DNA from: Patescibacteria group bacterium | Lineage (GTDB): Bacteria > Patescibacteriota > Patescibacteriia > GWA2-46-9 | Length of the DNA stretch: 64,000 nt | Reading direction: 5' to 3' | Assembly (NCBI GenBank): GCA_041675205.1 | Contig: JBAYUF010000002.1 | Location: forward strand, 68,568-132,567 | Shown: one piece after another, positions 3,062-57,404 of the stretch | Numbering within the stretch: position 1 is the first letter of the stretch | Layout: each line of letters starts with the position of its first letter | Notes under the pieces: generated by a model | What the model was told of the DNA's origin: nothing | Databases searched by the model: none | Seen by the model: the letters and a program-made list of their open reading frames with translations, nothing else | Translations under genes and position numbers: made by a program

Positions 3062-4123
3062 TTAGTTATAATTGGGAGCTTGTTTTTCTATCTGAATAGT
3101 ATGCGGGTGGCTTTCGGCTCTGCCGGCTGGGGTAATGCGAATGAAATGTTTACTGCACTGCATCAGTTGAGGGATTGTGGAGACTCCAACATAGCCCATG
3201 CCAGCCTTTAGTCCACCGATGAGTTGATACACCGTGTCGGCGAGAGGGCCTTTATACGGAACAATACCCTCGACACCTTCAGGTACGTATTTTTTCATTC
3301 CTTTTTGGCCATAGCGGTCAGAGCTCTCACCAATCTGCATGGCGCCTAATGAACCCATGCCGCGATACCGTTTAACTTTCTTGCCGTTCAGTAAGGTTGT
3401 ATCCCCTGGGGCTTCGTCAGTTCCTGCAAATAATGAGCCAAGCATCACTGCCGCCGCGCCGCCAGCAATAGCTTTGACTATGTCTCCCGAATAACGAATG
3501 CCACCGTCAGCAATAACCGTAATTCGATTTCCTTTGACGGCTTCTGCCACCAGTATAATGGCCGTTAGTTGTGGTACGCCGACGCCGGCAACAACACGCG
3601 TCGTGCAGATAGCGCCCGGGCCGACGCCAACCTTGAGTGCATCAACGTACGGCGCAAAAGCACGGGCAGCCGCGGCCGTTGCTATGTTGCCTACAATCAA
3701 GTTAGCGTGCACTTTTTTTCGCAGCGTTTTTACATCCTTAAGGATACTTGGTTTGTGCACGTGGGCGGAATCAACGACGATTGCGTCGATGCCCACCGCG
3801 TCTAGCGCCAACGCTCGCTCACTATCGTGTGGTCCAATTGCTGCGGCAACAAGACATCCGGCTTTTTTGACGGTTCGCACCATGGCGACCTGTTCTGGAA
3901 TCGTACAATTACGATGCAACACCCCGAGACCCCCCAATCGCGCAATGGCAATGGCCATGTTGGCGCCCGTTACGGTGTCCATGGCGGCTGAAAGCAAAGG
4001 AATAGAGAGCTGAATATTTGGTGTGAGTTTGGTCGTAGTAATGGCGGTGCTGGGCGAGACCTCAGACAATTGAGGCACCAGCAGAACGTCATCAAAGGTG
4101 AGACCAAGCGGCAGTGTTTTCAT
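3062..4123 (-). CDS. guaB: IMP dehydrogenase lacking the CBS/Bateman subdomain
   Basis: N-terminus [11 protein letters not shown]...SAAMDTVT...VKK runs directly into the catalytic barrel ([11 protein letters not shown] ... [19 protein letters not shown]). 353 aa, so no room for CBS pairs. Confidence 0.8.
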
Positions 4124-26372: not shown

Positions 26373-26615
26373 ATGAAAAATCTTCACATGTTAACTTTCC
26401 TTCTTCTCGTTGTTGGCGGCCTTAACTGGCTTTTGCAGGGTCTTTTTGGTTGGGAAATTGGTTCACTCTTTGGTGGTATGGATATGGTTATTTCAAGAGT
26501 GATTTACATCTTGGTTGGTTTGTCTGCTATTTACGAAATAGGTACCCATAAGTCGACTTGCAAGATGTGTGGTATGAAAACCCCATCAGGAATGCCCACC
26601 GGTTCAATGTCGTAA
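26373..26615 (+). CDS. DUF378-family small membrane protein
   Basis: LLVVGGLNWLLQG...ISRVIYILVGLSAIYE. AGGAGGTGAGG ribosome-binding site. Confidence 0.55.
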   Translation: MKNLHMLTFLLLVVGGLNWLLQGLFGWEIGSLFGGMDMVISRVIYILVGLSAIYEIGTHKSTCKMCGMKTPSGMPTGSMS

Positions 26616-26663: not shown

Positions 26664-26693
26664 ATGTTTCCATGTACTAGTACATGGAAACAT
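26664..26693. promoter_or_regulatory. perfect 30-bp palindrome carrying the TGTACTAGTACA (TrpR-operator-like) core
   Basis: ATGTTTCCATGTACTAGTACATGGAAACAT. Lies between the convergent DUF378 and ychF genes. Confidence 0.5.
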
Positions 26694-26715: not shown

Positions 26716-27771
26716 CTAGGTGCTGAAACGAAAGTGGCAGACATCACCATCAGCCAGGGTATATGTTTTTCCTTCGAGCCGGAGTAGCCCCAGTTCCTTT
26801 GCTCGTACTTCGCCACCTGTTTTAACCAATTCTTGCCACGGAATAACTTCAGCAGCAATGAAGCCGTGTTCGAAATCGGTATGAATAACACCAGCCGCTT
26901 GTGGTGCCTTGGTGCCTTCGTGAATCGTCCACGCTCGAGTTTCTGTGGGGCCGCTCGTGAAGAACGTAATCAAGTGTAGTAATTCATAGGCTCCGGAAAT
27001 AAGCCGATCAAGACCGGAGCGCTCTAAGCCGAGGTCAGTGAGATACGCCTTGGCTTCGTCGGGTGCTAGTTCGGCTAGCTCAGATTCAATTTTTGCAGAA
27101 ATACGTATTGCGCCATTCGTCCCTATGCTGGCGGCATTTTCTTCGCTGACATTCTCGACAATTAAAAGTGGTTTTCGGGTGAGTAAATTTATAGACTGCA
27201 AAATCACAGCTTCATCTTCGGTTGTTTCAACGTCACGTACATGGTTAACAGTATTCAGTGCTTCGGCTAATCGACGGCAGAGGGCAAGTTCGGTGGCTGC
27301 ACGTGCATCCCCACTGTTCGCTCGACCCTCGGTGGCGGCGATGCGACGCGTGACCGTATCGAGGTCTGCCATGGCGAGCTCCAGCCCGATAGTAATTCGA
27401 TCACGTTCAGGATCTGGTGTGCCGTCAACGTGAATGATGTTTGGGTCAACAAAATCTCGAACCACTTCTACTATAGCGTCCACTTCACGAATGTGTGCCA
27501 AGAATTTATTACCGAGGCCCTCGCCTTTGTGCGCGCCAGCCACTAGCCCCGCAATATCAACAAATTCAATCGCCGTTGGAATAATTTTTACCGATTTTGA
27601 AACAACAGCCAGGGCTTCAAGTCGCTCATCGGGCACAGCCACCACGCCCACGTTCGGCTCAATGGTGGCAAAGGGATAATTTTCAATAACGACCTGTTTT
27701 TTTGTAAGCGCCTTAAAGAGCGTCGATTTCCCGACGTTTGGTAGACCAACGATGCCAACTTGAAGTGCCAT
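26716..27771 (-). CDS. ychF: ribosome-binding ATPase YchF
   Basis: [14 protein letters not shown]. Start taken at MALQVGIV. Confidence 0.9.
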
Positions 27772-27860
27772 AGAATAGGTAGTGTTGCGCACTATACCCG
27801 GTTTCGTGTAGATTTGCCAGCAAGCTTGGGTACATTCAAAGATACTCATGAGGAGGAATC

Positions 27861-28793
27861 GTGAAGAAAGCAAGAGTTACGGTTGGTTTCTCGTGTGCTC
27901 TCGAGGTCGTTTGCCGCGGCATCGAGACTGGCGCCGCGGGCAGCAAATTGAACGGTGTCATTGAGCTCGAGCTTGGTGGTACTTCATTCAACGTTGCGGT
28001 CGCCTTGAGTCAGGCTGGTTTTTCACCACACTTGGTGGCGACCATTGGCGGACACGACGAGTTCGCGCCTATCGTGCGGCAGAAGCTGAAGGCGACAGGC
28101 ATCGAAGCAAGTTTGTTTCCGGTTCGTAAACGGACACCGGTTTCACTCCTGCTTCCAGAGAAGAAGTGGCTCCTGACCGATCGTCGTGGCATGGACCGGC
28201 CGTTACGAGCAGCAGAACTTGAGGAGCTTCATCGGCATGCGGCCCCGACCCGTGTCGTGACCGGACTGCTGCCTGATGCAGATGAGGTCAAAATCGCACG
28301 AGCATTATTCCGGCATCAAACGCCGGATCGTCGGCTCAACATTCTCAACCCGCGTGCGTCGCTCGTTGTCAGTGACCTCTTCGACCTCTTGTTGCCGCAG
28401 ATCAACTGGCTGGTGTTGAACAGGGAGGAATCCGAATTCTTCTTCGGGCTCGGCAGTCGAGTGGATCAGTTCTTGCACCGCCACAATACGGTGCTCGTGG
28501 TGACGAGAGATACGGAGGGGGCACAAGTACTCACGGGCGGCGCTCGATATCGAATTCCGGCGTATCCGGACATTGCGGTGGTGCAGGAGACGGGCGCCGG
28601 TGACTGCTTCCTCGGCTACTTTCTCGCTTCCTACCTGCAGAAGATGCCCTGGCAGATGTGTCTGAAGCGAGCCGTGGTAGCAGCGGGACTCAAGGTAAGC
28701 AGGCCGGGTTCGGCGTCAGCGCCAGAACGACATGAGGTCGATGTTTGTGTGGCTGGTTGGCACGAGGAGGTCGCCGTCGACTCAGTCACCTGA
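27861..28793 (+). CDS. PfkB-family carbohydrate/nucleoside kinase
   Basis: C-terminal GAGDCFLGYF motif. Confidence 0.65.
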   Translation: MKKARVTVGFSCALEVVCRGIETGAAGSKLNGVIELELGGTSFNVAVALSQAGFSPHLVATIGGHDEFAPIVRQKLKATGIEASLFPVRKRTPVSLLLPEKKWLLTDRRGMDRPLRAAELEELHRHAAPTRVVTGLLPDADEVKIARALFRHQTPDRRLNILNPRASLVVSDLFDLLLPQINWLVLNREESEFFFGLGSRVDQFLHRHNTVLVVTRDTEGAQVLTGGARYRIPAYPDIAVVQETGAGDCFLGYFLASYLQKMPWQMCLKRAVVAAGLKVSRPGSASAPERHEVDVCVAGWHEEVAVDSVT

Positions 28794-38589: not shown

Positions 38590-39879
38590 TTAACCACGCT
38601 TGGCAAGTGCCTCCTCTAGGCGTTTTAGGGCAACGATAAACGCAGCCGTGCGCATGCTTGTTTTATATGATTCTTTCGCTTTCCAAACAGCAGCAAACGA
38701 GTCGCGCATAATCGGCTTTAATTTTTCTCTAACCTGCTTTGCTGTCCACCGGATACCTTGTTTATTTTGCAGCCATTCGAAATAGGAAACCGTGACCCCG
38801 CCGGCATTGGCCAAAATATCTGGCACGACGAGAACGCCACGTTTGAGCAGTTTACTATCCGCTTCTGGGGTAGTTGGGCCGTTTGCTACTTCGAGAATGA
38901 TTCGTGCCTTGATACGACCGGCATTTTTCTTGGTAATCTGATTTTCGAGCGCGGCTGGAATAAGGATATCGCAGGGTGCTTCGAGTAGTTTTTCGTTCGT
39001 TACGCCTTTGTAATTTTTACCATCGCACACCGATCCAACGCAGTACATCGAACCTATCATACCGCGGTCTTTTTTTGTGGCCATCACGTTTTTGGGGTCC
39101 ATGCCTTTGCCGCGGACGTCGAGTATGCCACCAGTAGAATCACTTAGACCAATGATGCGGTAGCCGGCTTTGTGAGCAAGCGTTGCCATATGAAAGCCAG
39201 CGTTCCCAAAACCTTGAATGATAACGCTGGTTTTTTTGGGGTTCAGTTTTAATTTTTTCGCGACATCTTCTAGCACCATGTAGGCGCCGTCCGCTGTGGC
39301 TGTATCGCGACCGAGCGAGCCACCCTCAGAAATTGGCTTACCGGTAACAACACCCGGTTCCGCGCGGCCGACAATGTGCCGATATTCGTCGGCAATCCAT
39401 GCCATAATCTGCGGGTTTGTATTTACGTCTGGTGCTGGCACGTCTCGTTCTGGGCCGAAGACATCTTTCATCATTCGAGTGAACGATCGTGTTAGCCGTT
39501 CCAATTCTCCGCTAGAAAGTTTTTTGGGGTTAACAGTGATACCACCTTTGCCGCCACCCATTGGTATACCCACGACGGCGCACTTCATGGTCATCCAAAG
39601 GGCAAGCGCCTTCACCTCGTTCTGGTCGACGTTTGAATGATAGCGTAAGCCGCCTTTGTAGGGGCCGCGGACGTTGGAGTGTTGCACTCGGTAACCGGTA
39701 AACAGTTTTTTTTGTCCGTCATCCATTACTACTGGAACGGTAACTTCAATGACTCGCTCTGGTTTACTTAATGTATCGAGCACTGCCGGCGGCGTGTTAG
39801 CAATTTTGCCAGCCTGTTGCAGCTGGGTTAGGGCATTCTGAAAAGCATTCATGGAGTTATCAACGACTTGGTAGCCCAA
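38590..39879 (-). CDS. gdhA: Glu/Leu/Phe/Val dehydrogenase (glutamate dehydrogenase)
   Basis: KGGLRYH ... GGGKGG ... GFGNAG. Confidence 0.85.
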   Translation of the reverse strand: MGYQVVDNSMNAFQNALTQLQQAGKIANTPPAVLDTLSKPERVIEVTVPVVMDDGQKKLFTGYRVQHSNVRGPYKGGLRYHSNVDQNEVKALALWMTMKCAVVGIPMGGGKGGITVNPKKLSSGELERLTRSFTRMMKDVFGPERDVPAPDVNTNPQIMAWIADEYRHIVGRAEPGVVTGKPISEGGSLGRDTATADGAYMVLEDVAKKLKLNPKKTSVIIQGFGNAGFHMATLAHKAGYRIIGLSDSTGGILDVRGKGMDPKNVMATKKDRGMIGSMYCVGSVCDGKNYKGVTNEKLLEAPCDILIPAALENQITKKNAGRIKARIILEVANGPTTPEADSKLLKRGVLVVPDILANAGGVTVSYFEWLQNKQGIRWTAKQVREKLKPIMRDSFAAVWKAKESYKTSMRTAAFIVALKRLEEALAKRG

Positions 39880-40855
39880 TGGCCTGGCGCACTTTTTTCA
39901 TAGTATGCAACGCAATTTTTTCAGCATTTTTTGAGCCATTGCGAAGTGTCGTAAGCATTGCTCTTGGCCGGCTACGCAGATGCAGGAACTTTTTTTGAAA
40001 GTCTTCGAGCCCGACGCAGATGTCGTTCGCTAGTGTTTCCTTTAGCTCACTGTAGCGAATAGTTCCGGATTGCTGTTTTGCCCGAAATTCAGCGGCCACT
40101 TTTGGCGTGCTGAAAGCATCAAGCAGAAGGAATAGGTTGGCTACCCCAGCCGCCACTTCGTTTTTGTCTCCCGTGCCACTGTCTGTGACTGCTCGGGCGA
40201 TTTTTTTCTTAATGATTGCTGGTTCGTCGTCCAGAAAAAGGCAACCGGTCGGTTCGGACTTACTCATTTTACGGTTCGGATCAGTTAGGCTCATTAGCCG
40301 TGGTACGCTTGTGTAAAGTGGCATCGGTACGGTGAACACTGCGCCGTAGCGAGTGTTGAATTTTTTGGCCACGGTGCGCGTCAGTTCGAGGTGCTGCGTC
40401 TGGTCGTCTCCAACCGGGACGAGGTTGCCATTGTAGAGAAGAATATCGGCGGCCATCAAGGTGGGATAGGTGAACAGGCCGACGTTGGCGTTGCCTGGTT
40501 GCCGGGCGCTTTTATCTTTATACTGCGTCATCCGTTCTAGCTCACCCATGGGCGTTACCGTGTTCAGAATCCAAGCTAACTCGGCGTGGGCGGGAACGAA
40601 CGACTGCAAGAACAAGGTGCACTTTTTCGGATTCAACCCAGCAGCCAGGTAACTTGCAATGATATCTATGATTTCGGCTGTTTTTTCTTTTGTATTGTAG
40701 CTTTCTGTCAAAGCGTGCAAGTCAGCCACCATAAAGAGGCAGTCGTGATCTGTTTGGAGCGTAACAAAGTTTTTGAGTGCGCCAAGATAGTTACCGACGT
40801 GTAGTCGGCCAGTGGGCTGAATACCAGATAAGACCCGTGAGCGAATGGTAGCCAT
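39860..40855 (-). CDS. trpS: tryptophanyl-tRNA synthetase
   Basis: GIQPTGRLHVGNYLGA (HIGH region) and KMSKS. Confidence 0.9.
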   Translation of the reverse strand: MATIRSRVLSGIQPTGRLHVGNYLGALKNFVTLQTDHDCLFMVADLHALTESYNTKEKTAEIIDIIASYLAAGLNPKKCTLFLQSFVPAHAELAWILNTVTPMGELERMTQYKDKSARQPGNANVGLFTYPTLMAADILLYNGNLVPVGDDQTQHLELTRTVAKKFNTRYGAVFTVPMPLYTSVPRLMSLTDPNRKMSKSEPTGCLFLDDEPAIIKKKIARAVTDSGTGDKNEVAAGVANLFLLLDAFSTPKVAAEFRAKQQSGTIRYSELKETLANDICVGLEDFQKKFLHLRSRPRAMLTTLRNGSKNAEKIALHTMKKVRQAIGLPSR

Positions 40856-51756: not shown

Positions 51757-53427
51757 TTGACGATTATGAACGTGTACTTCATTGCCACTCTTGTTCTTAT
51801 CGTGCTCGAAACACTCATCGGGCTCATTGTTTATTTGCACGATTCGAAGCAGCGTACGAATCGTCTGTTTCTCTCATTAACACTCGCAATCGTATTGTGG
51901 ACAGTCGCAAACTATTTAGCTGATGTTTTCAGTTCTCACTTTTGGGCCGAGACAGCATATCTTGGAGCGCTCCTGATTTTTTATACATTGTTCCTTTTTG
52001 TTGAGGCTTTTCCTCAGCCAACGGGCATTATCTCAAAAGGAGTTCAGTTAGTGTTACTTGCCCTCACTGCATTACTCGGCGTCATTATTTACCTTCCCCA
52101 GGGATTCATCGTGGCAGCGGTGATTCCGCGCAGTGGCGGCATTGATGTACAAACCGGTGTCTTATTCCCAATTTTAGCCTCCTACTTCATTACCTTATTT
52201 TCTGTCGTTTGCATTTTTCTTTTTCAAAAGCTTAGACATAGCGAGAGCTTAGAGCGAATTCAGTTGCAGTACCTCACGTTTGGTCTGTTGGCCGGACTTA
52301 TTATTGGTATCGGTGGAAATTTAATTATTCCGCTCGTCAGTGGTGATTTTTTATCGAGTCGGTATGGTCCATGGGGGGTTATTATTTTTTTACTCCTCAC
52401 CACGTTCGCCATTGTTCGTTACAACTTACTTAATATTACAGTAATTGCGACGGAGGTATTTGTTGTACTCTTGTTGCTCATCTTGCTTGGGCAGGTATTC
52501 TTGGCCGATGGCGATATTCAGCTTGCTGGAAACATTACCGTACTGGTGCTGGCGTCAGTACTCGCCTACTTCCTTATTCGAAGTATGCTTCGGGAAGTGA
52601 AGCAGCGGCAAATACTTACCAGGCTAACGACACAGCTCGAAGATGCTAACCAGCAATTGAAAGTGCTTGACGAAGCGAAGTCAGAATTTGTTTCTATCGC
52701 GTCGCACCAATTGCGCACACCACTCACGGTTATTAAGGGATACGTTTCAATGCTTTCTGAGGGCTCGTTTGGCAAAATTCCGAATAAGCAAGAAGATCCA
52801 ATCAGAAAAATTTATGAATCAGCCAATCGGCTGATTGAACTGGTTGAAAATTTACTGTCTATTTCTCGCATTGAATCGGGTCGCATGAAGTACAATATGG
52901 CACCAACCAAGCTTGAAGAACTAGCAGCTTCCGCCACAGAGGAATTGCAGACGGCAGCCGGCAACAAGAAATTGAAGTTGGTGTTCGAGCAACCAAGAGA
53001 AGCGTTACCAGTGTTACCACTTGATGGTGAGAAGTTGCGTCAGGTGATGATGAACTTAATAGATAATGCGGTGAAGTACACACCGAAAGGGTCGGTTACC
53101 GTACGGGTTGAAGTGGTTCGCAACAAACGACCGCCGTACATTGCTGTGCCAAGCATCATGTTTTCCGTAACAGACACCGGTGCAGGACTTGCCCCAGAAG
53201 ATCAGAAACGTTTGTTTCAGAAGTTTAACCGAGCGGATGGCAATAACCTCAATACCCGTGGCACTGGCCTTGGCCTCTACGTCGGAAGAATGATGGTTGA
53301 AGCACACCACGGTGTTATTTGGGTGACGAGCCCAGGCGTGAACAAGGGCAGCACCTTCGCTTTTGCCGTGCCGCTTCCTAGTGTGACGGATGAAGCCATC
53401 CTTGCCTTGAAGGATATGGTTCGCTAG
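51757..53427 (+). CDS. sensor histidine kinase with N-terminal polytopic membrane domain
   Basis: H-box ASHQLRTPLTVIKGY. HATPase region with TGAGL and G-box GTGLGL. Confidence 0.8.
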   Translation: MTIMNVYFIATLVLIVLETLIGLIVYLHDSKQRTNRLFLSLTLAIVLWTVANYLADVFSSHFWAETAYLGALLIFYTLFLFVEAFPQPTGIISKGVQLVLLALTALLGVIIYLPQGFIVAAVIPRSGGIDVQTGVLFPILASYFITLFSVVCIFLFQKLRHSESLERIQLQYLTFGLLAGLIIGIGGNLIIPLVSGDFLSSRYGPWGVIIFLLLTTFAIVRYNLLNITVIATEVFVVLLLLILLGQVFLADGDIQLAGNITVLVLASVLAYFLIRSMLREVKQRQILTRLTTQLEDANQQLKVLDEAKSEFVSIASHQLRTPLTVIKGYVSMLSEGSFGKIPNKQEDPIRKIYESANRLIELVENLLSISRIESGRMKYNMAPTKLEELAASATEELQTAAGNKKLKLVFEQPREALPVLPLDGEKLRQVMMNLIDNAVKYTPKGSVTVRVEVVRNKRPPYIAVPSIMFSVTDTGAGLAPEDQKRLFQKFNRADGNNLNTRGTGLGLYVGRMMVEAHHGVIWVTSPGVNKGSTFAFAVPLPSVTDEAILALKDMVR

Positions 53428-53432
53428 GCTTA

Positions 53433-54218
53433 GTGCAGACAACTATGGCAGAGGCAAAGAAAAAAGTGCTTATCATTGAAGACGAGGCATTCCTCGCCGA
53501 GATGTACCACACGAAGTTTAAAGAGTTGGGGTACCAGGTTTTTGTTGCACCTGACGGCAAGCAGGGAATTGCGGTGATGCATAAAGAAAAACCGGATCTC
53601 ACTTTGCTCGATATCATCATGCCAGACCTCGATGGCTATGAGGTTTTAAAAGTAGTGCGGCAGGATGCAGACTTGAAAGACTTGTTGATTGTCGTCCTTT
53701 CGAACCTGGGACAAGACGAAGAGATTACAAAAGGCATGCAGCTCGGTGCCGACGACTACTTGGTAAAGTCTGACCTTACGCCGAGTCAATTGGTAGAGAA
53801 AATTGAAACGGTATTGGCTCGTGGCCGCACAGCGAGTGCTGCGGTGCAGCAAGTGCGGGTGCTCCTCATTGAAGATACGCGGGACATTGTTGAATTGTAT
53901 CGTCATCGATTTGAGAAAGAAGGATTTATTTGTACCGTGGCGGAAAATGGTGCCTGGGGAGTGAAGACTGCTCAGACCCAACCATTTGATCTCATACTTC
54001 TCGACATAGCTATGCCAGCCATGAACGGGCTTGAAGCACTGGCCACGTTGCGAGCCACGCCGAAACTGGAGAAGACGCCAATCATTGTTTTTTCGAACAC
54101 TGTCGAATCAGATGAGTTGAGTGATGTAAAAAAAGCCGGGGCAACGGAAGTGTTTCTAAAAGCGCGAGTAACCCCAACGCAGATTGTGAACAAGATTCGT
54201 GAACTAATCGCTCGATAG
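53433..54218 (+). CDS. response regulator with two tandem receiver domains and no output domain
   Basis: Two REC units: LLDIIMPDLDG ... VVLSN and LLDIAMPAMNG ... IVFSN. Confidence 0.75.
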   Translation: MQTTMAEAKKKVLIIEDEAFLAEMYHTKFKELGYQVFVAPDGKQGIAVMHKEKPDLTLLDIIMPDLDGYEVLKVVRQDADLKDLLIVVLSNLGQDEEITKGMQLGADDYLVKSDLTPSQLVEKIETVLARGRTASAAVQQVRVLLIEDTRDIVELYRHRFEKEGFICTVAENGAWGVKTAQTQPFDLILLDIAMPAMNGLEALATLRATPKLEKTPIIVFSNTVESDELSDVKKAGATEVFLKARVTPTQIVNKIRELIAR

Positions 54219-54313: not shown

Positions 54314-54616
54314 ATGGAAAGAACCTTAGAAAGTATTGGGGTTGAGATCGACGAGATCGATGCCTTGTTCGTGCGTCTGCTCGCCTTACGATTTCGGTTG
54401 GCACTTGAAGCCGGCGAGATCAAGCGTGCTGCTGGATTGCCAATTGTGCGTCCGGCCGTGGAGCAGGCGAGGATTGCAGCAGTGACGAAGTTGGCAGAGG
54501 CGCAGGGGCTGCCGGATGATTTCGTTCGGGAGCTGATGGAGAAGATCGTTTTTCGTTGTCGGACGGCACAAAAACTACCACCACCTACGCGAACAGGGTG
54601 GGCCGCCTGCAGCTAA
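54314..54616 (+). CDS. AroQ-class chorismate mutase
   Basis: IDEIDALFVRLLALRFRLALEAGEIK. Confidence 0.55.
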   Translation: MERTLESIGVEIDEIDALFVRLLALRFRLALEAGEIKRAAGLPIVRPAVEQARIAAVTKLAEAQGLPDDFVRELMEKIVFRCRTAQKLPPPTRTGWAACS

Positions 54617-54627
54617 GATGTTCGACG

Positions 54628-54660
54628 GCGAGGGGGCTGATCGAAATCAACCCCCTCGCG
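54628..54660 (+). terminator. hairpin terminator after the chorismate mutase gene
   Basis: GCGAGGGGG-14 nt-CCCCCTCGC. A T-run follows 12 nt later. Confidence 0.5.
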
Positions 54661-54662
54661 CC

Positions 54663-54705
54663 TTGCTAGATTTTTTATTGTTAAATACAATGTACTAGTA
54701 CATTG
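54663..54705 (+). promoter_or_regulatory. promoter (TTGCTA-17-TACAAT) overlapped by the 18-bp perfect palindrome CAATGTACTAGTACATTG (TrpR-type operator)
   Basis: Palindrome at 54688-54705 overlaps the -10 and the predicted transcription start of the trpR-like gene. Confidence 0.55.
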
Positions 54706-54755
54706 ATATGGGGAACGTAACAAAAAAGTACATTAGTGAAGTTGAGGAAGTAGTT

Positions 54756-55001
54756 ATGCGCGCGGCGCGGTCGCCGGAGTTGCTGCATGAGTTTTTGCGT
54801 GACGTATTAACCCCAGCCGAACTTGATGAAGTGGCCTTGCGTTGGCAGATTGTAAAGCGTCTGGCGGCTGGTGCGTCGCACCGCGACATTGCCGAAGAGC
54901 TTGGTGTGGGGGTGGCTACCATTGCTCGGGGTGCCAGAGAATTAACAAACCCGACCGGCGGTTTTTGGCGCCTGCTGCAACGACCGACCGAACGTTCTTG
55001 A
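54756..55001 (+). CDS. trpR: TrpR/YerC-family repressor
   Basis: VLTPAELDEVALRWQIVKRLAAGASHRDIAEELGVGVATIARGARELT aligns to the TrpR HTH (...ELGAGIATITRGSN...). Start taken at MRAARS, which has a GAGGAAG ribosome-binding site; the alternative start is 54708. Confidence 0.7.
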   Translation: MRAARSPELLHEFLRDVLTPAELDEVALRWQIVKRLAAGASHRDIAEELGVGVATIARGARELTNPTGGFWRLLQRPTERS

Positions 55002-55029
55002 CACCACATCTCTTTCTGCTATAGTTCAC

Positions 55030-55041
55030 TGTACTAGTACA
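55030..55041 (+). promoter_or_regulatory. second TGTACTAGTACA operator, upstream of the trp leader
   Basis: Exact 12-bp core within the imperfect palindrome CACTGTACTAGTACACTG. Confidence 0.55.
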
Positions 55042-55058
55042 CTGAAACAAAGAAAAGT

Positions 55059-55127
55059 ATGATTTCTATACACATTGAAGCAAACGCTCGTTGGTGGTCC
55101 GTTCTCTATCTCAGAGGGCGAGCCTAG
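55059..55127 (+). CDS. trpL: trp leader peptide, 22 aa, with tandem Trp codons
   Basis: ATG ATT TCT ATA CAC ATT GAA GCA AAC GCT CGT TGG TGG TCC ... TAG translates to MISIHIEANARWWSVLYLRGRA. Confidence 0.5.
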   Translation: MISIHIEANARWWSVLYLRGRA

Positions 55128-55150
55128 ATTGTTATTGTTAATAATAGTTT

Positions 55151-55180
55151 TGGCCCGCTCTCTGGAGCGGGCGTTTTGTT
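55151..55180 (+). terminator. trp attenuator terminator
   Basis: GCCCGCTC-TCTGG-GAGCGGGC then GTTTTGTTTT, about 70 nt upstream of trpE. GAGGGCGAGCC (55113-55123) could form the alternative antiterminator pairing. Confidence 0.6.
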
Positions 55181-55251
55181 TTGGGTAGCGAGCCGGAATG
55201 AACCTTTGACAACAAAAACCTTTTGAAAAGAAAAGGAATAGGGAGAACGAC

Positions 55252-56823
55252 ATGAAAAACGGTGAAGCACTGAATCGTGAAATGGGTGAGGGGATGGAAA
55301 GCTGTTGGAATGGAGCATGGCGTGTGATTGATGATTACGCGGCGAATGTGCTCGATGATTTCCAGCGCATGGCTGCTGTGGGTGGTAGGCACCTGGTGCC
55401 GGTCGTTATTGGGTTGCCAAGTGACAACGTAACACCGGTAGCGGTGTATCAATCCGTCCGTCGAGCCACCACCCCAACAGTATTTCTTGAAAGTGTGCCG
55501 CAGGGGCAGCACTTGGGGGATTACACCATCGTTGGTTGTCGGATGAGCGCCCGTTTCACCGTGCGAGGTGAACGGTCGGCATTGAAACCACGGCTGGGTC
55601 GGGTGGAAATTGCCGAGGGAATGGCTCTCGAGCATCTGGAAGCGTTTTTGCAGTCAACAACACCACTGCAGCAACCTGGTCGAGCACCATTTCTTGGTGG
55701 TGCAATCGGCTACGTTGGTTTTGAGGGTGTATGCCTCATTGAACCAACGGTGTCACGGCACAGCGTGAACAAACTGGATTGGCCAGAGATTGATCTCGTC
55801 GCGTTCGACGAAGTAATCGTCTTTGACCATGCCCGTCAGCTTGTTTACCTCGTCGCTTTGGCTGAGTTCAACGGCAGCGAAAATGTAGCGGCGGCGCATC
55901 GGGATGCGTACGAACGTGCCGGTCGACTGATCCGTCATCTGCAAAAACCAATCGAGCCGCTCACCAAGCTGACCGGCGTGGATGGTAAGATTTCGAGCAA
56001 CATGACTCGGGACGTCTACGAGCGGATGATCGAAACCGGGAAACGGTATATCACCAGCGGTGATGTATTTCAGATAGTGCTGTCGCAGCGGTTCAGTGTT
56101 GGTTTTTCTGGTGATTCATTCGACTTCTACCGACACCTGCGTCGTATGAATCCATCACCGTATATGTTTCACCTTGAGCTTAGCGACGGGCGAGTGCTTA
56201 CTGGTGCGTCGCCCGAGGTTATGGTGAAAGTCAGTGGTGATGTCGTGCACATTCGACCAATTGCTGGAACCAGACGGCGGAGCATCGATGCGGTGGAAGA
56301 CGAGCGCCTGCGGCAGGAGCTGGCGGCAGATCCAAAGGAGCGGGCCGAGCACAGCATGTTGGTTGATTTGGCGCGAAATGATGTTGGCCGAGTGACAGTG
56401 ACGGGGAGTGTAGTCGTCAGCGGAGTGATGCGGGTAGAGAAATACAGCACGGTGCAGCATCTGGTGAGCGACGTGAGCGGACGACTGCACGAAGCTATTA
56501 CTCCGTTTCGGGCGTTTCTCACCTGCTTGCCGGCTGGTACGCTCTCCGGTGCGCCTAAGATTCGCGCCTGTCAATTGCTGGTTGAACTTGAGCCGTGTGC
56601 TCGTGGGCCATATGGCGGCGCTGTTGGTTGGTTCACCTCATACGGTCTTGATACGGGCATAGCGATTCGAACGGCGTGGGTAGATTCCGGAACTATGTAC
56701 TGGCAAGCAGGGGGAGGCGTAGTTGCCGACTCAACACCTGCCGGTGAGTACGAGGAGTCGCTAACGAAAGCAAGATCAATTGGCAACGTGCTCAAGCATG
56801 CAACGGGAGGTACTGGACGATGA
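55252..56823 (+). CDS. trpE: anthranilate synthase component I
   Basis: 523 aa chorismate-binding enzyme (LSQRF ... GAPK ... GGAVG). Confidence 0.9.
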   Translation: MKNGEALNREMGEGMESCWNGAWRVIDDYAANVLDDFQRMAAVGGRHLVPVVIGLPSDNVTPVAVYQSVRRATTPTVFLESVPQGQHLGDYTIVGCRMSARFTVRGERSALKPRLGRVEIAEGMALEHLEAFLQSTTPLQQPGRAPFLGGAIGYVGFEGVCLIEPTVSRHSVNKLDWPEIDLVAFDEVIVFDHARQLVYLVALAEFNGSENVAAAHRDAYERAGRLIRHLQKPIEPLTKLTGVDGKISSNMTRDVYERMIETGKRYITSGDVFQIVLSQRFSVGFSGDSFDFYRHLRRMNPSPYMFHLELSDGRVLTGASPEVMVKVSGDVVHIRPIAGTRRRSIDAVEDERLRQELAADPKERAEHSMLVDLARNDVGRVTVTGSVVVSGVMRVEKYSTVQHLVSDVSGRLHEAITPFRAFLTCLPAGTLSGAPKIRACQLLVELEPCARGPYGGAVGWFTSYGLDTGIAIRTAWVDSGTMYWQAGGGVVADSTPAGEYEESLTKARSIGNVLKHATGGTGR

Positions 56824-57404
56824 GTGAGTCTCCACGGGTACTGCTTCTTGATCACTTCGACTCCTTCACCTACAACCTGGTGCAACTGTTGGCAGTAGCC
56901 GGGGCAAGTGTTCGCGTCGTGCGGACAAATGAGGTGATGTCGACAGATGGCTTCACGCATCTTGTCCTGTCCCCCGGCCCAGGGCATCCGGATGACGTGC
57001 GGCCGTTCAAGACTGCACTGGACCGCTGGGCCGATGTTGTGCCGATACTCGGTGTCTGTCTTGGCTGCCAAGCCATTGGCTCCTGGGCGGGTGTTCCTGT
57101 TGTGCCAGCCGGGCGACTGATGCACGGCAAAACCTCTGAGGTTCGGGTGACGGTAACAGACGACGCTTTGTTCGTGGGAGTACCATCGTCGTTTACCGCC
57201 ATGCGGTATCACTCGTTGGTGCTGGACAGTGGAGCGGCTGCGCAAAGTAAGGCACTGACCGTAACAGCGCGAAGTGATGACGGTCAGGTTATGGCCGTAA
57301 CGCTCACTGGCCCGCGCAATGTATACGGGGTGCAGTTTCATCCGGAGTCATACTTCAGCGAAGAGGGTGAACAGCTGGTAAGCAATTTTCTGAAGACGCG
57401 ATAA
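56820..57404 (+). CDS. trpG: anthranilate synthase component II (glutamine amidotransferase)
   Basis: LGVCLGCQ and HPES motifs. Overlaps the trpE stop by 4 nt. Confidence 0.85.
   Translation: MSESPRVLLLDHFDSFTYNLVQLLAVAGASVRVVRTNEVMSTDGFTHLVLSPGPGHPDDVRPFKTALDRWADVVPILGVCLGCQAIGSWAGVPVVPAGRLMHGKTSEVRVTVTDDALFVGVPSSFTAMRYHSLVLDSGAAAQSKALTVTARSDDGQVMAVTLTGPRNVYGVQFHPESYFSEEGEQLVSNFLKTR

Follow-up and report, generated by a model that had tools for sequence, protein, structure and literature searches.

A predicted two-layer, E. coli-type tryptophan switch, TrpR repression with leader-peptide attenuation, ahead of trpE-trpG in a Patescibacteria genome

How might a bacterium of the Patescibacteria, or Candidate Phyla Radiation (CPR), control its tryptophan genes? 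The question is raised by a 64,000-nucleotide stretch of an Uhrbacteria-like genome (hereafter the window), in which a trpR-like gene is followed by a palindrome, a very short open reading frame (ORF) with two adjacent Trp codons, and trpE-trpG. CPR bacteria are uncultured, have very small genomes and are usually presumed to be amino-acid auxotrophs; to our knowledge, almost nothing is known of their gene regulation. An earlier note, made from the letters of the window alone, had read the region as a TrpR-family repressor gene with palindromic operators and a leader peptide with an attenuator. The present analysis points with good confidence to a two-layer switch of the E. coli type, in which TrpR repression would be combined with leader-peptide attenuation. 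The coordinates of all features are collected in Table 1.

The family assignment of the trpR product in the earlier note is borne out by sequence profile, predicted structure and pocket residues alike. The Pfam Trp_repressor profile scores 63 bits against a cut-off of 27, with 76 of its 88 positions covered. The AlphaFold model (predicted local distance difference test score, pLDDT, 90.2) has six helices and shows the all-helical TrpR fold with its helix-turn-helix. In a Foldseek search of the PDB, the best 41 matches are all TrpR or TrpR-like proteins (including 1tro, 1trr and 3frw), with a TM-score of 0.72 and a root-mean-square deviation of 2.2 Å to 1tro_G, the E. coli repressor-operator complex, and a TM-score of 0.80 to 3frw. 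The roles of Thr44, Arg54, Arg84 and Gly85 in the corepressor pocket are known from E. coli structures, where Arg54 and Arg84 sandwich the indole ring; these residues correspond to T35, R45, R74 and G75 here and are invariant in 12 CPR homologues. The recognition helix of E. coli TrpR is mostly conserved; Ser88 and Thr83 are not, being replaced by E78 and A73. The NCBIfam model of the YerC/YecD proteins gives 28.8 bits (cut-off 42.2), lower than the score for the TrpR equivalog model discussed below. The product is thus supported, on sequence and model, as a TrpR-family repressor.

The exact 12-mer TGTACTAGTACA occurs three times in the window and in none of 100 dinucleotide-preserving shuffles of it, and its 8-mer core, TACTAGTA, occurs only at the same three sites (0.24 expected by chance). 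The first copy begins on the last base of the -10 box TACAAT (54686-54691) of the predicted trpR promoter, the overlap that had been pointed out before, and ends 5 nt 5' of the trpR ATG. The second begins 4 nt 3' of a near-consensus promoter predicted for the leader and trpE-trpG, whose -35 box overlaps the trpR stop codon. At both promoters the core consists of two abutting inverted GTACT half-sites (GTACT-AGTAC). The earlier note was correct about the copy 5' of the 22-codon ORF and about the CTAG centre; it undercounted the copies, three rather than two, and its likening of the site to E. coli trp operators must be amended, since there is a single CTAG and not the two of the E. coli operator.

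Related lineages, identified by exact-protein look-ups and protein searches and cited here by locus handles, include five with full synteny besides the window: L008 (TrpR 84% identical), L090 (Candidatus Uhrbacteria CG10; TrpE 69%; L091 and L092 are identical to it over the stretch compared), L093 (TrpE 51%), L094 (TrpE 48%) and L098 (Uhrbacteria RIFCSPLOWO2_02_FULL_48_12; TrpE 44%, with trpD preceding trpE). The contig of a further relative, L007, ends inside the leader. The order histidine kinase-response regulator-(chorismate mutase)-trpR-leader-(trpD)-trpE-trpG is common to six lineages including the window, at TrpE identities of 44-69%. A metagenome scan with TrpE yielded only relatives of at most 44% identity from other phyla, and nhmmer located the leader in none of them.

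The palindrome is retained at both promoters in the relatives although the surrounding DNA has diverged. The sequence cGTACTAGTACA stands at the position equivalent to O1 in L007, L008 and L090, and 24 nt of the O2 region, TTCACTGTACTAGTACACTGAAAC, are identical in L008. In all relatives trpR is followed by a promoter of the TTGAC(A/G) type and an operator of the GTACTAGTAC type, with the -35 box at the same position in L007, L008, L090, L093, L094 and L098. In L094, trpR follows the response regulator gene and lacks an operator of its own. Linkage to trpR was examined at 45 trpR loci, nearly all from Patescibacteria, obtained by scanning GTDB species representatives with an alignment of TrpR proteins; a scan of the GTDB genomes with a single TrpR protein as query gave no matches, so that the alignment was needed. 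The pattern (G/A)TACTAGTA(C/T) occurs at 48 sites in 413 kb around the 45 trpR genes versus 3 in the 577 kb of trpE loci from other phyla that served as controls, and at 25 of the 45 loci a site falls between -300 and +650 nt relative to the trpR match. This retention and enrichment support the proposal, made previously from the palindrome itself, that it serves as the operator of the TrpR-like protein.

The symmetrised profile of 64 distinct sites, TG.TAyyAnYGTACT-AGTACRnTrrTA.CA (the hyphen marking the centre), shows weaker TACTA-like elements 8 bp either side of the core, and L098 has two CTAGs 8 bp apart. Both features are expected from overlapping GNACT-N8-AGTNC operators offset by 8 bp. 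E. coli TrpR can bind in tandem on a CTAG-centred half-site palindrome, two tandem dimers meeting at the abutting half-sites; the title of PDB entry 1trr names tandem TrpR binding on a half-site operator. Because the core found here consists of such abutting half-sites, tandem-dimer binding is likely here as well. In L093 both operators have changed together to ATACTAGTAT (TATACTAGTAT), and operators of the ATAC type are likewise present in L098 and L113. Co-variation between protein and DNA was considered, as the equivalent of Arg69 is W, W and Q in L093, L098 and L113, which have ATACT operators; L131 (R with ATAC) and L115 (H with GTAC) are exceptions, and the pattern was set aside as a hint only.

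The second layer would begin with the leader ORF, which carries CGT-TGG-TGG at 55089-55097, the two Trp codons (55092-55097) being codons 12-13, and ends at a UAG at 55125-55127. In the public annotation of the same contig no gene is called between trpR and trpE, and the leader was rightly said to be easily missed. The hairpin at 55153-55172 and the U-run GTTTTGTTTT form an intrinsic terminator (-17.3 kcal/mol, z -4.0). Segment 2, at the end of the ORF, can pair with segment 3 to give an antiterminator (55111-55124 with 55152-55165; -29.9 kcal/mol, z -6.2) that is mutually exclusive with the terminator. The folding analysis suggested earlier therefore finds both competing structures, and the ORF with its Trp codons, the terminator, the alternative pairing and the trpE-trpG genes behind them all exist as had been described. 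When a ribosome footprint was placed over the Trp codons as a folding constraint, the antiterminator was part of the minimum free energy (MFE) structure of the window, L008, L093 and L094, and of that of L090 only with the footprint on the first Trp codon. With the footprint on the stop codon, the terminator formed in five of five lineages.

Comparison of the relatives, the other check that had been suggested, supports the same elements. A short frame with Trp codons ends at an invariant CGAGC(C/A)-UAG and is followed by GCCCGCUC...GAGCGGGC and a U-run. The conserved UAG of L008, L090, L093, L094 and L098 shares its frame with Trp codons 10-11 codons before it. From the second Trp codon to the stop the distance is exactly 10 codons in L008, L090 and L098, the three relatives that share the tandem pair, as it is in the window; L094 has W-A-W instead of UGG-UGG, and L093 a single W. 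L008 and the window have the leader ATG in common (AGTATGATTT). The remainder of the peptide and its length (19-35 codons) are not conserved, as is typical of regulatory leader peptides, and in L098 the frame is open for 96 codons. In an alignment of six sequences (A3; the window and the five relatives), 97.9% of the terminator cells are paired, with one G-C to A-U change. For the antiterminator the value is 85%, with four pairs changed on both sides, a result reached by 3 of 500 shuffles and compared with 0-1 such pairs in slid controls. The sole C-to-A change within CGAGC(C/A)UAG is synonymous and is compensated in segment 3, and bases of the terminator loop co-vary with segment 2. Leader-peptide attenuation is thus supported at the level of sequence and predicted folding. 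The attribution to classical attenuation holds for the Trp codons, the terminator and the compensated antiterminator; it does not extend to the 1:2 helix, which is not conserved, or to a leader with a Shine-Dalgarno sequence.

Cassettes of the same composition are found around trpR in twelve other Patescibacteria lineages (L097, L109, L111, L112, L113, L115, L116, L117, L119, L121, L124, L125). Short tandem-Trp ORFs, such as those encoding MDTKINNGIGFWWGADSLMLLR and MSKAVIKYTVSAWWTLPSFAKFVV, start at or just 3' of the GTACTAGTAC operator there, and most are followed by a hairpin and a U-run.

In the proposed mechanism, TrpR loaded with Trp would bind the GTACTAGTAC-centred palindromes O1 and O2 over the transcription start regions and block initiation. 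Those transcripts that do start would carry the 22-codon ORF with its two adjacent Trp codons, a layer of control suggested by structure and conservation. When Trp-tRNA is sufficient, the ribosome would reach the UAG at 55125 and sit on segment 2; with segment 2 masked, segment 3 would pair with segment 4, the terminator would form, and transcription would stop at about 55173-55182. With little Trp-tRNA available, the ribosome would stall at 55092-55097, leaving segment 2 free to pair with segment 3 as soon as the latter is made. No terminator would then form, and RNA polymerase would read into trpE-trpG. No terminator was found between trpR and the leader; at high Trp, trpR transcripts are therefore probably ended by the attenuator as well.

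Several observations weigh against this switch or require its modification. On the protein side, the TrpR equivalog model of NCBIfam (TIGR01321) is matched at 44.1 bits, below its cut-off of 67.25. The promoter calls are matches to a sigma-70-like consensus only, and promoters of CPR bacteria are uncharacterised; a single CTAG is present in the operator, versus two CTAGs 8 bp apart in E. coli trpO, and the third copy in the window is not at a promoter. The leader ATG has no Shine-Dalgarno sequence (no GGAGG-like sequence) in any lineage examined, whereas every trpE has a strong one (GGGAG in the window); in the window the ATG is preceded by an A/G-rich stretch only. In further CPR lineages no nucleotides separate the operator from the leader ATG, a hint of leaderless or short-leader mRNAs. 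The single Trp codon of L093 aligns with the first of the pair, and in L090 a TAA follows six codons after the in-frame ATG, so that only a TTG start is left. Three independent assemblies (L090, L091 and L092; 7802-7897 and 9590-10167) are identical over the leader region compared, with this leader TAA and with trpG split in two frames; the trp operon of Candidatus Uhrbacteria CG10 may be decaying. The MFE structure of the untranslated full-length RNA is the antiterminator in three of five lineages, so that the default state may be "on", unlike in E. coli. The classical 1:2 anti-antiterminator folds in the window (55096-55107 with 55113-55124, -12.7 kcal/mol) and fails the comparative test, with 56% of cells paired, equal to slid and shuffled controls; a three-segment model, in which a ribosome at the stop codon masks segment 2, is therefore preferred. 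Membership in the Rfam Trp_leader family (RF00513) was rejected, as the full model reaches 25.7 bits against a gathering score of 41 (E 0.0024-0.0069), and in L008, L090, L093, L094, L098 and L113 there was no match at E<=5. Finally, the physiological output is in doubt: besides the chorismate mutase gene, trpE and trpG are the only trp genes in the window, and a blastp comparison with the ORFs of 85 trp loci found none of trpD, trpC, trpF, trpB or trpA in its 64 kb. The other genes of the pathway may be elsewhere, or the cell may trade anthranilate with a partner.

Some of these points would suit other explanations of the locus. The hairpin at 55153-55172 could be a constitutive trpR terminator, or an insulator before trpE, with the tandem-Trp ORF and the alternative pairing incidental and regulation left to TrpR only. 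The lack of any terminator between trpR and the hairpin favours this view, as do the missing Shine-Dalgarno sequence, the unconserved 1:2 helix and the in-frame stop after the leader ATG of L090. Yet a strong promoter and an operator lie between trpR and the hairpin, and every transcript from that promoter would then stop. Neither the constant spacing between Trp codons and an invariant stop, seen in six lineages, nor the twelve further CPR loci, with their tandem-Trp ORFs directly 3' of an operator and before terminators, sit well with an incidental frame, and the co-variation of the terminator loop with segment 2 is not needed by a plain terminator and so speaks against one. A plain terminator is accordingly considered very unlikely.

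A different sensor might operate the attenuator, namely a TRAP-like factor acting in trans, tRNA contact of the T-box type, or a TnaC-like peptide through which high free Trp would arrest the ribosome at the stop codon. The conserved C-terminus of the leader, (R/D)-R-A-stop with its invariant stop, speaks for such a sensor, and the T-box-like leaders at other Patescibacteria trpEG loci (see below) indicate that other RNA-based Trp sensing exists in the phylum. However, the T-box model (RF00230) has no match at its gathering score in the window, nor at E<=10 in 54600-55300, and no GAG/UAG triplet-repeat array of the TRAP type is seen in the leader. Pairing with segment 3 accounts for the conserved C-terminal codons and for the one synonymous, compensated change among them, and the rest of the peptide is not conserved, unlike that of arrest peptides; such a sensor thus appears highly improbable. 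Somewhat less improbable, though still unlikely, is that the palindromes are bound by the TrpR-like protein with a ligand other than Trp (anthranilate, indole or another aromatic compound), or by another protein. The sub-threshold equivalog score and the loss of Ser88 and Thr83 are in keeping with this, and the protein is as close to the uncharacterised Firmicutes TrpR-like proteins 3g1c and 3frw as to E. coli TrpR. Against it stand the invariant indole-sandwiching arginines, together with the Thr44 and Gly85 equivalents, the tight linkage of the operator to trpR genes, its association, across the phylum, with leaders that contain Trp codons and with trpE, trpD-like and trpB-like genes, and the trpR homologues that adjoin trpS. 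The combination of TrpR repression and leader-peptide attenuation remains the preferred reading.

Table 1 Features of the trp locus and of the third operator copy in the window.
Feature	Position	Strand	Description
Predicted trpR promoter	54663-54691	+	TTGCTA 54663-54668, 17 nt, TACAAT 54686-54691; consensus scan, 9/12 matches
Operator O1	54688-54705		18-bp perfect palindrome CAATGTACTAGTACATTG; 12-mer core 54691-54702; spans predicted trpR transcription start
trpR	54708-55001	+	TrpR-family repressor, 97 aa; Pfam PF01371
Predicted leader/trpEG promoter	54998-55025	+	TTGACA 54998-55003, 16 nt, TGcTATAGT 55017-55025; extended -10; 11/12 matches
Operator O2	55025-55046		TTCAC-TGTACTAGTACA-CTGAA; 22-bp palindrome with one mismatched pair; core 55030-55041; covers predicted transcription start
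Leader ORF (trpL-like)	55059-55127	+	22 codons, MISIHIEANARWWSVLYLRGRA then stop
Segment 1 (window-specific)	55096-55107	+	Pairs with segment 2, -12.7 kcal/mol; predicted to be covered by a ribosome that stalls at the Trp codons
Segment 2	55111-55124	+	Last four sense codons of leader ORF; antiterminator 5' arm
Segment 3	55152-55165	+	Antiterminator 3' arm; terminator 5' arm and loop
Intrinsic terminator	55153-55182	+	Hairpin 55153-55172, GCCCGCUC-UCUG-GAGCGGGC, then GUUUUGUUUU
trpE	55252-56823	+	Anthranilate synthase component I, 523 aa; Pfam Chorismate_bind, Anth_synt_I_N
trpG	56820-57404	+	Glutamine amidotransferase component; Pfam GATase; NCBIfam trpG_papA 152 bits (cut-off 121)
Chorismate mutase (AroQ type)	54314-54616	+	Pfam CM_2, 64.5 bits; directly 5' of trpR
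Response regulator	53433-54218	+	Double-receiver, no output domain
Histidine kinase	51757-53427	+	HisKA_7TM, 7TM type
Third operator copy	26664-26693		30-bp perfect palindrome ATGTTTCCATGTACTAGTACATGGAAACAT around exact 12-mer (26673-26684)

The genes that follow the leader encode the two components of anthranilate synthase. For TrpE, the top NCBIfam model is trpE_most at 461.8 bits (cut-off 517.7), and PabB models score at most 295 bits; the start of trpG overlaps the stop of trpE. A tRNA gene, a GIY-YIG gene and uvrB follow trpG in this order on the plus strand. The chorismate mutase gene also precedes trpR in L001, L090 and L093. A histidine kinase gene and an output-less response regulator gene are always directly 5' of the (chorismate mutase-)trpR-trpEG genes in the window, L001, L090, L093, L094 and L098. 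In L093 (2014-2245), an insertion between the operator and the Trp leader contains a GC-rich hairpin and a 60-codon ORF, the latter preceded by a strong Shine-Dalgarno sequence, and repeat-like GC-rich elements lie within the open leader frame of L098; the spacer between operator and attenuator is tolerant of insertions in these two lineages.

The genes that lie 3' of the cassettes in the twelve other lineages are varied. They encode a TrpB-like PALP enzyme (L097), TrpD-like Glycos_transf_3 proteins (L117, L121) and phosphoribosyl pyrophosphate (PRPP) synthetase (L112); in L113, trpE-trpG come after three small ORFs, and in L111, L116, L119, L124 and L125 small proteins without a Pfam domain are encoded before secA. 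It is possible, and tentatively proposed, that operator, tandem-Trp leader and terminator form a portable Trp-sensing cassette and that TrpR controls a phylum-wide regulon. The third operator copy of the window sits between the 3' ends of two convergent genes, DUF378 (26373-26615, plus strand) and ychF (26716-27873, minus strand), with no U-run, tandem-Trp ORF or obvious promoter context at the site. Read as RNA from either strand, its palindrome would fold into a hairpin at about -18 kcal/mol, and it may act as a roadblock or a decoy, or be a relic. Should the cassette be portable, copies away from promoters such as this one could conceivably add a second role, e.g. as a transcription roadblock, a suggestion offered with the same reserve.

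Two other arrangements of Trp-related genes were encountered in the phylum. At L003-L006, L101, L103, L104, L106-L108, L110, L114, L118 and L137, a trpR homologue lies immediately 3' of a gene for a class-I tRNA synthetase of the Trp/Tyr type (trpS-like). The palindrome is absent from these loci, which have a conserved TTGGTGTACTATTnnnCTATGAC element containing a TACTAT -10-like box 6 nt before the ATG (TGTACTATT...ATG, promoter-like), an arrangement that suggests a leaderless trpS-trpR mRNA. Control of trpS by the same operator was rejected, as neither these CPR loci nor the trpS-like gene of the window (39860-40855, minus strand) has a site. At L140 (3708-3950) and L142 (about 3640-3920), trpE-trpG have no adjacent trpR and are preceded by a T-box-like leader (a GGUGGCACCGCG motif and a terminator); neither the operator nor a tandem-Trp ORF was found in these two loci. 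The full Rfam T-box model matches L140 3708-3897 at 38.1 bits (E 4.5e-7), below the gathering score of 93. Thus, trpEG would be under two unrelated Trp sensors within Patescibacteria.

The mechanism itself is textbook, and no principle is overturned; its description in Patescibacteria is new. It offers a concrete and testable regulatory circuit for CPR bacteria, built from parts that are understood in E. coli, and interest in it is raised somewhat by the phylum and by the evidence of cassette reuse across CPR genomes. The operator consensus and the tandem-Trp leader signature can serve as probes for genes that CPR bacteria treat as Trp-related, among them genes without known function and incomplete pathways, e.g. 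trpEG alone. If the cassette is indeed portable, its regulon would reveal the partial or salvage Trp routes and the unknown genes used by these host-dependent bacteria. Natural TrpR operators made of abutting half-sites are also relevant to the long-standing question of tandem TrpR binding. A passing note on TrpRS-A operons (PMC5370408) has mentioned a CPR trp repressor gene before; nothing else relevant was found in the literature on TrpR, leader peptides or anthranilate synthase in CPR/Patescibacteria.

The closest known counterpart is the dual control of E. coli trp, in which TrpR repression is combined with attenuation by TrpL with its WW motif, as outlined in PMC7755916. Shared features are the predicted autoregulation of a TrpR-family repressor, CTAG-containing operators over the trpR and leader promoters, a short leader ORF with tandem UGG codons, and a 2:3 antiterminator that competes with a 3:4 terminator. 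The terminator arms GCCCGC...GCGGGC with their U-run are also alike, and in the sub-threshold match to RF00513 the UGGUGG codons and the terminator arms align to the model. The differences are the CPR host, an operator of the form GTACT-AGTAC (spacing 0) versus the E. coli GNACT-N8-AGTNC, nine codons between WW and the stop versus three in E. coli, a leader without Shine-Dalgarno sequence or conserved 1:2 helix, and an operon of trpE-trpG only, with trpR directly upstream in the same direction. The pairing of trpR with trpE also recalls the core of the gammaproteobacterial TrpR regulon, trpR plus trpE; TrpR is reported to be conserved in many gammaproteobacterial groups and absent from the other classes of Proteobacteria (PMC5343134).

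Chlamydia trachomatis trpRBA resembles the locus in having trpR immediately 5' of the Trp genes it controls, a regulatory intergenic region with an internal promoter, and a reduced-genome host with a partial Trp pathway. According to PMC7755916, which also covers these features, the annotated chlamydial TrpL is long, has no tandem Trp codons and is deemed a poor attenuator, and YtgR attenuates in trans. In contrast, the locus described here has a short WW leader with a canonical terminator and antiterminator, and controls trpEG rather than trpBA. In Sinorhizobium meliloti, the released trp leader RNA, rnTrpL, acts in trans. The trpL-trpE(G) locus of that species, like the one described here, places a leader-peptide attenuator before a unit that encodes anthranilate synthase only, its other trp genes being elsewhere; the abstract of PMC6614838 describes attenuation only and mentions no TrpR layer, and the sequences are unrelated. 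Within the Patescibacteria, the T-box-like leaders of L140 and L142 are the nearest parallel, with the same trpEG targets and a terminator 5' of trpE; it is the sensor that differs.

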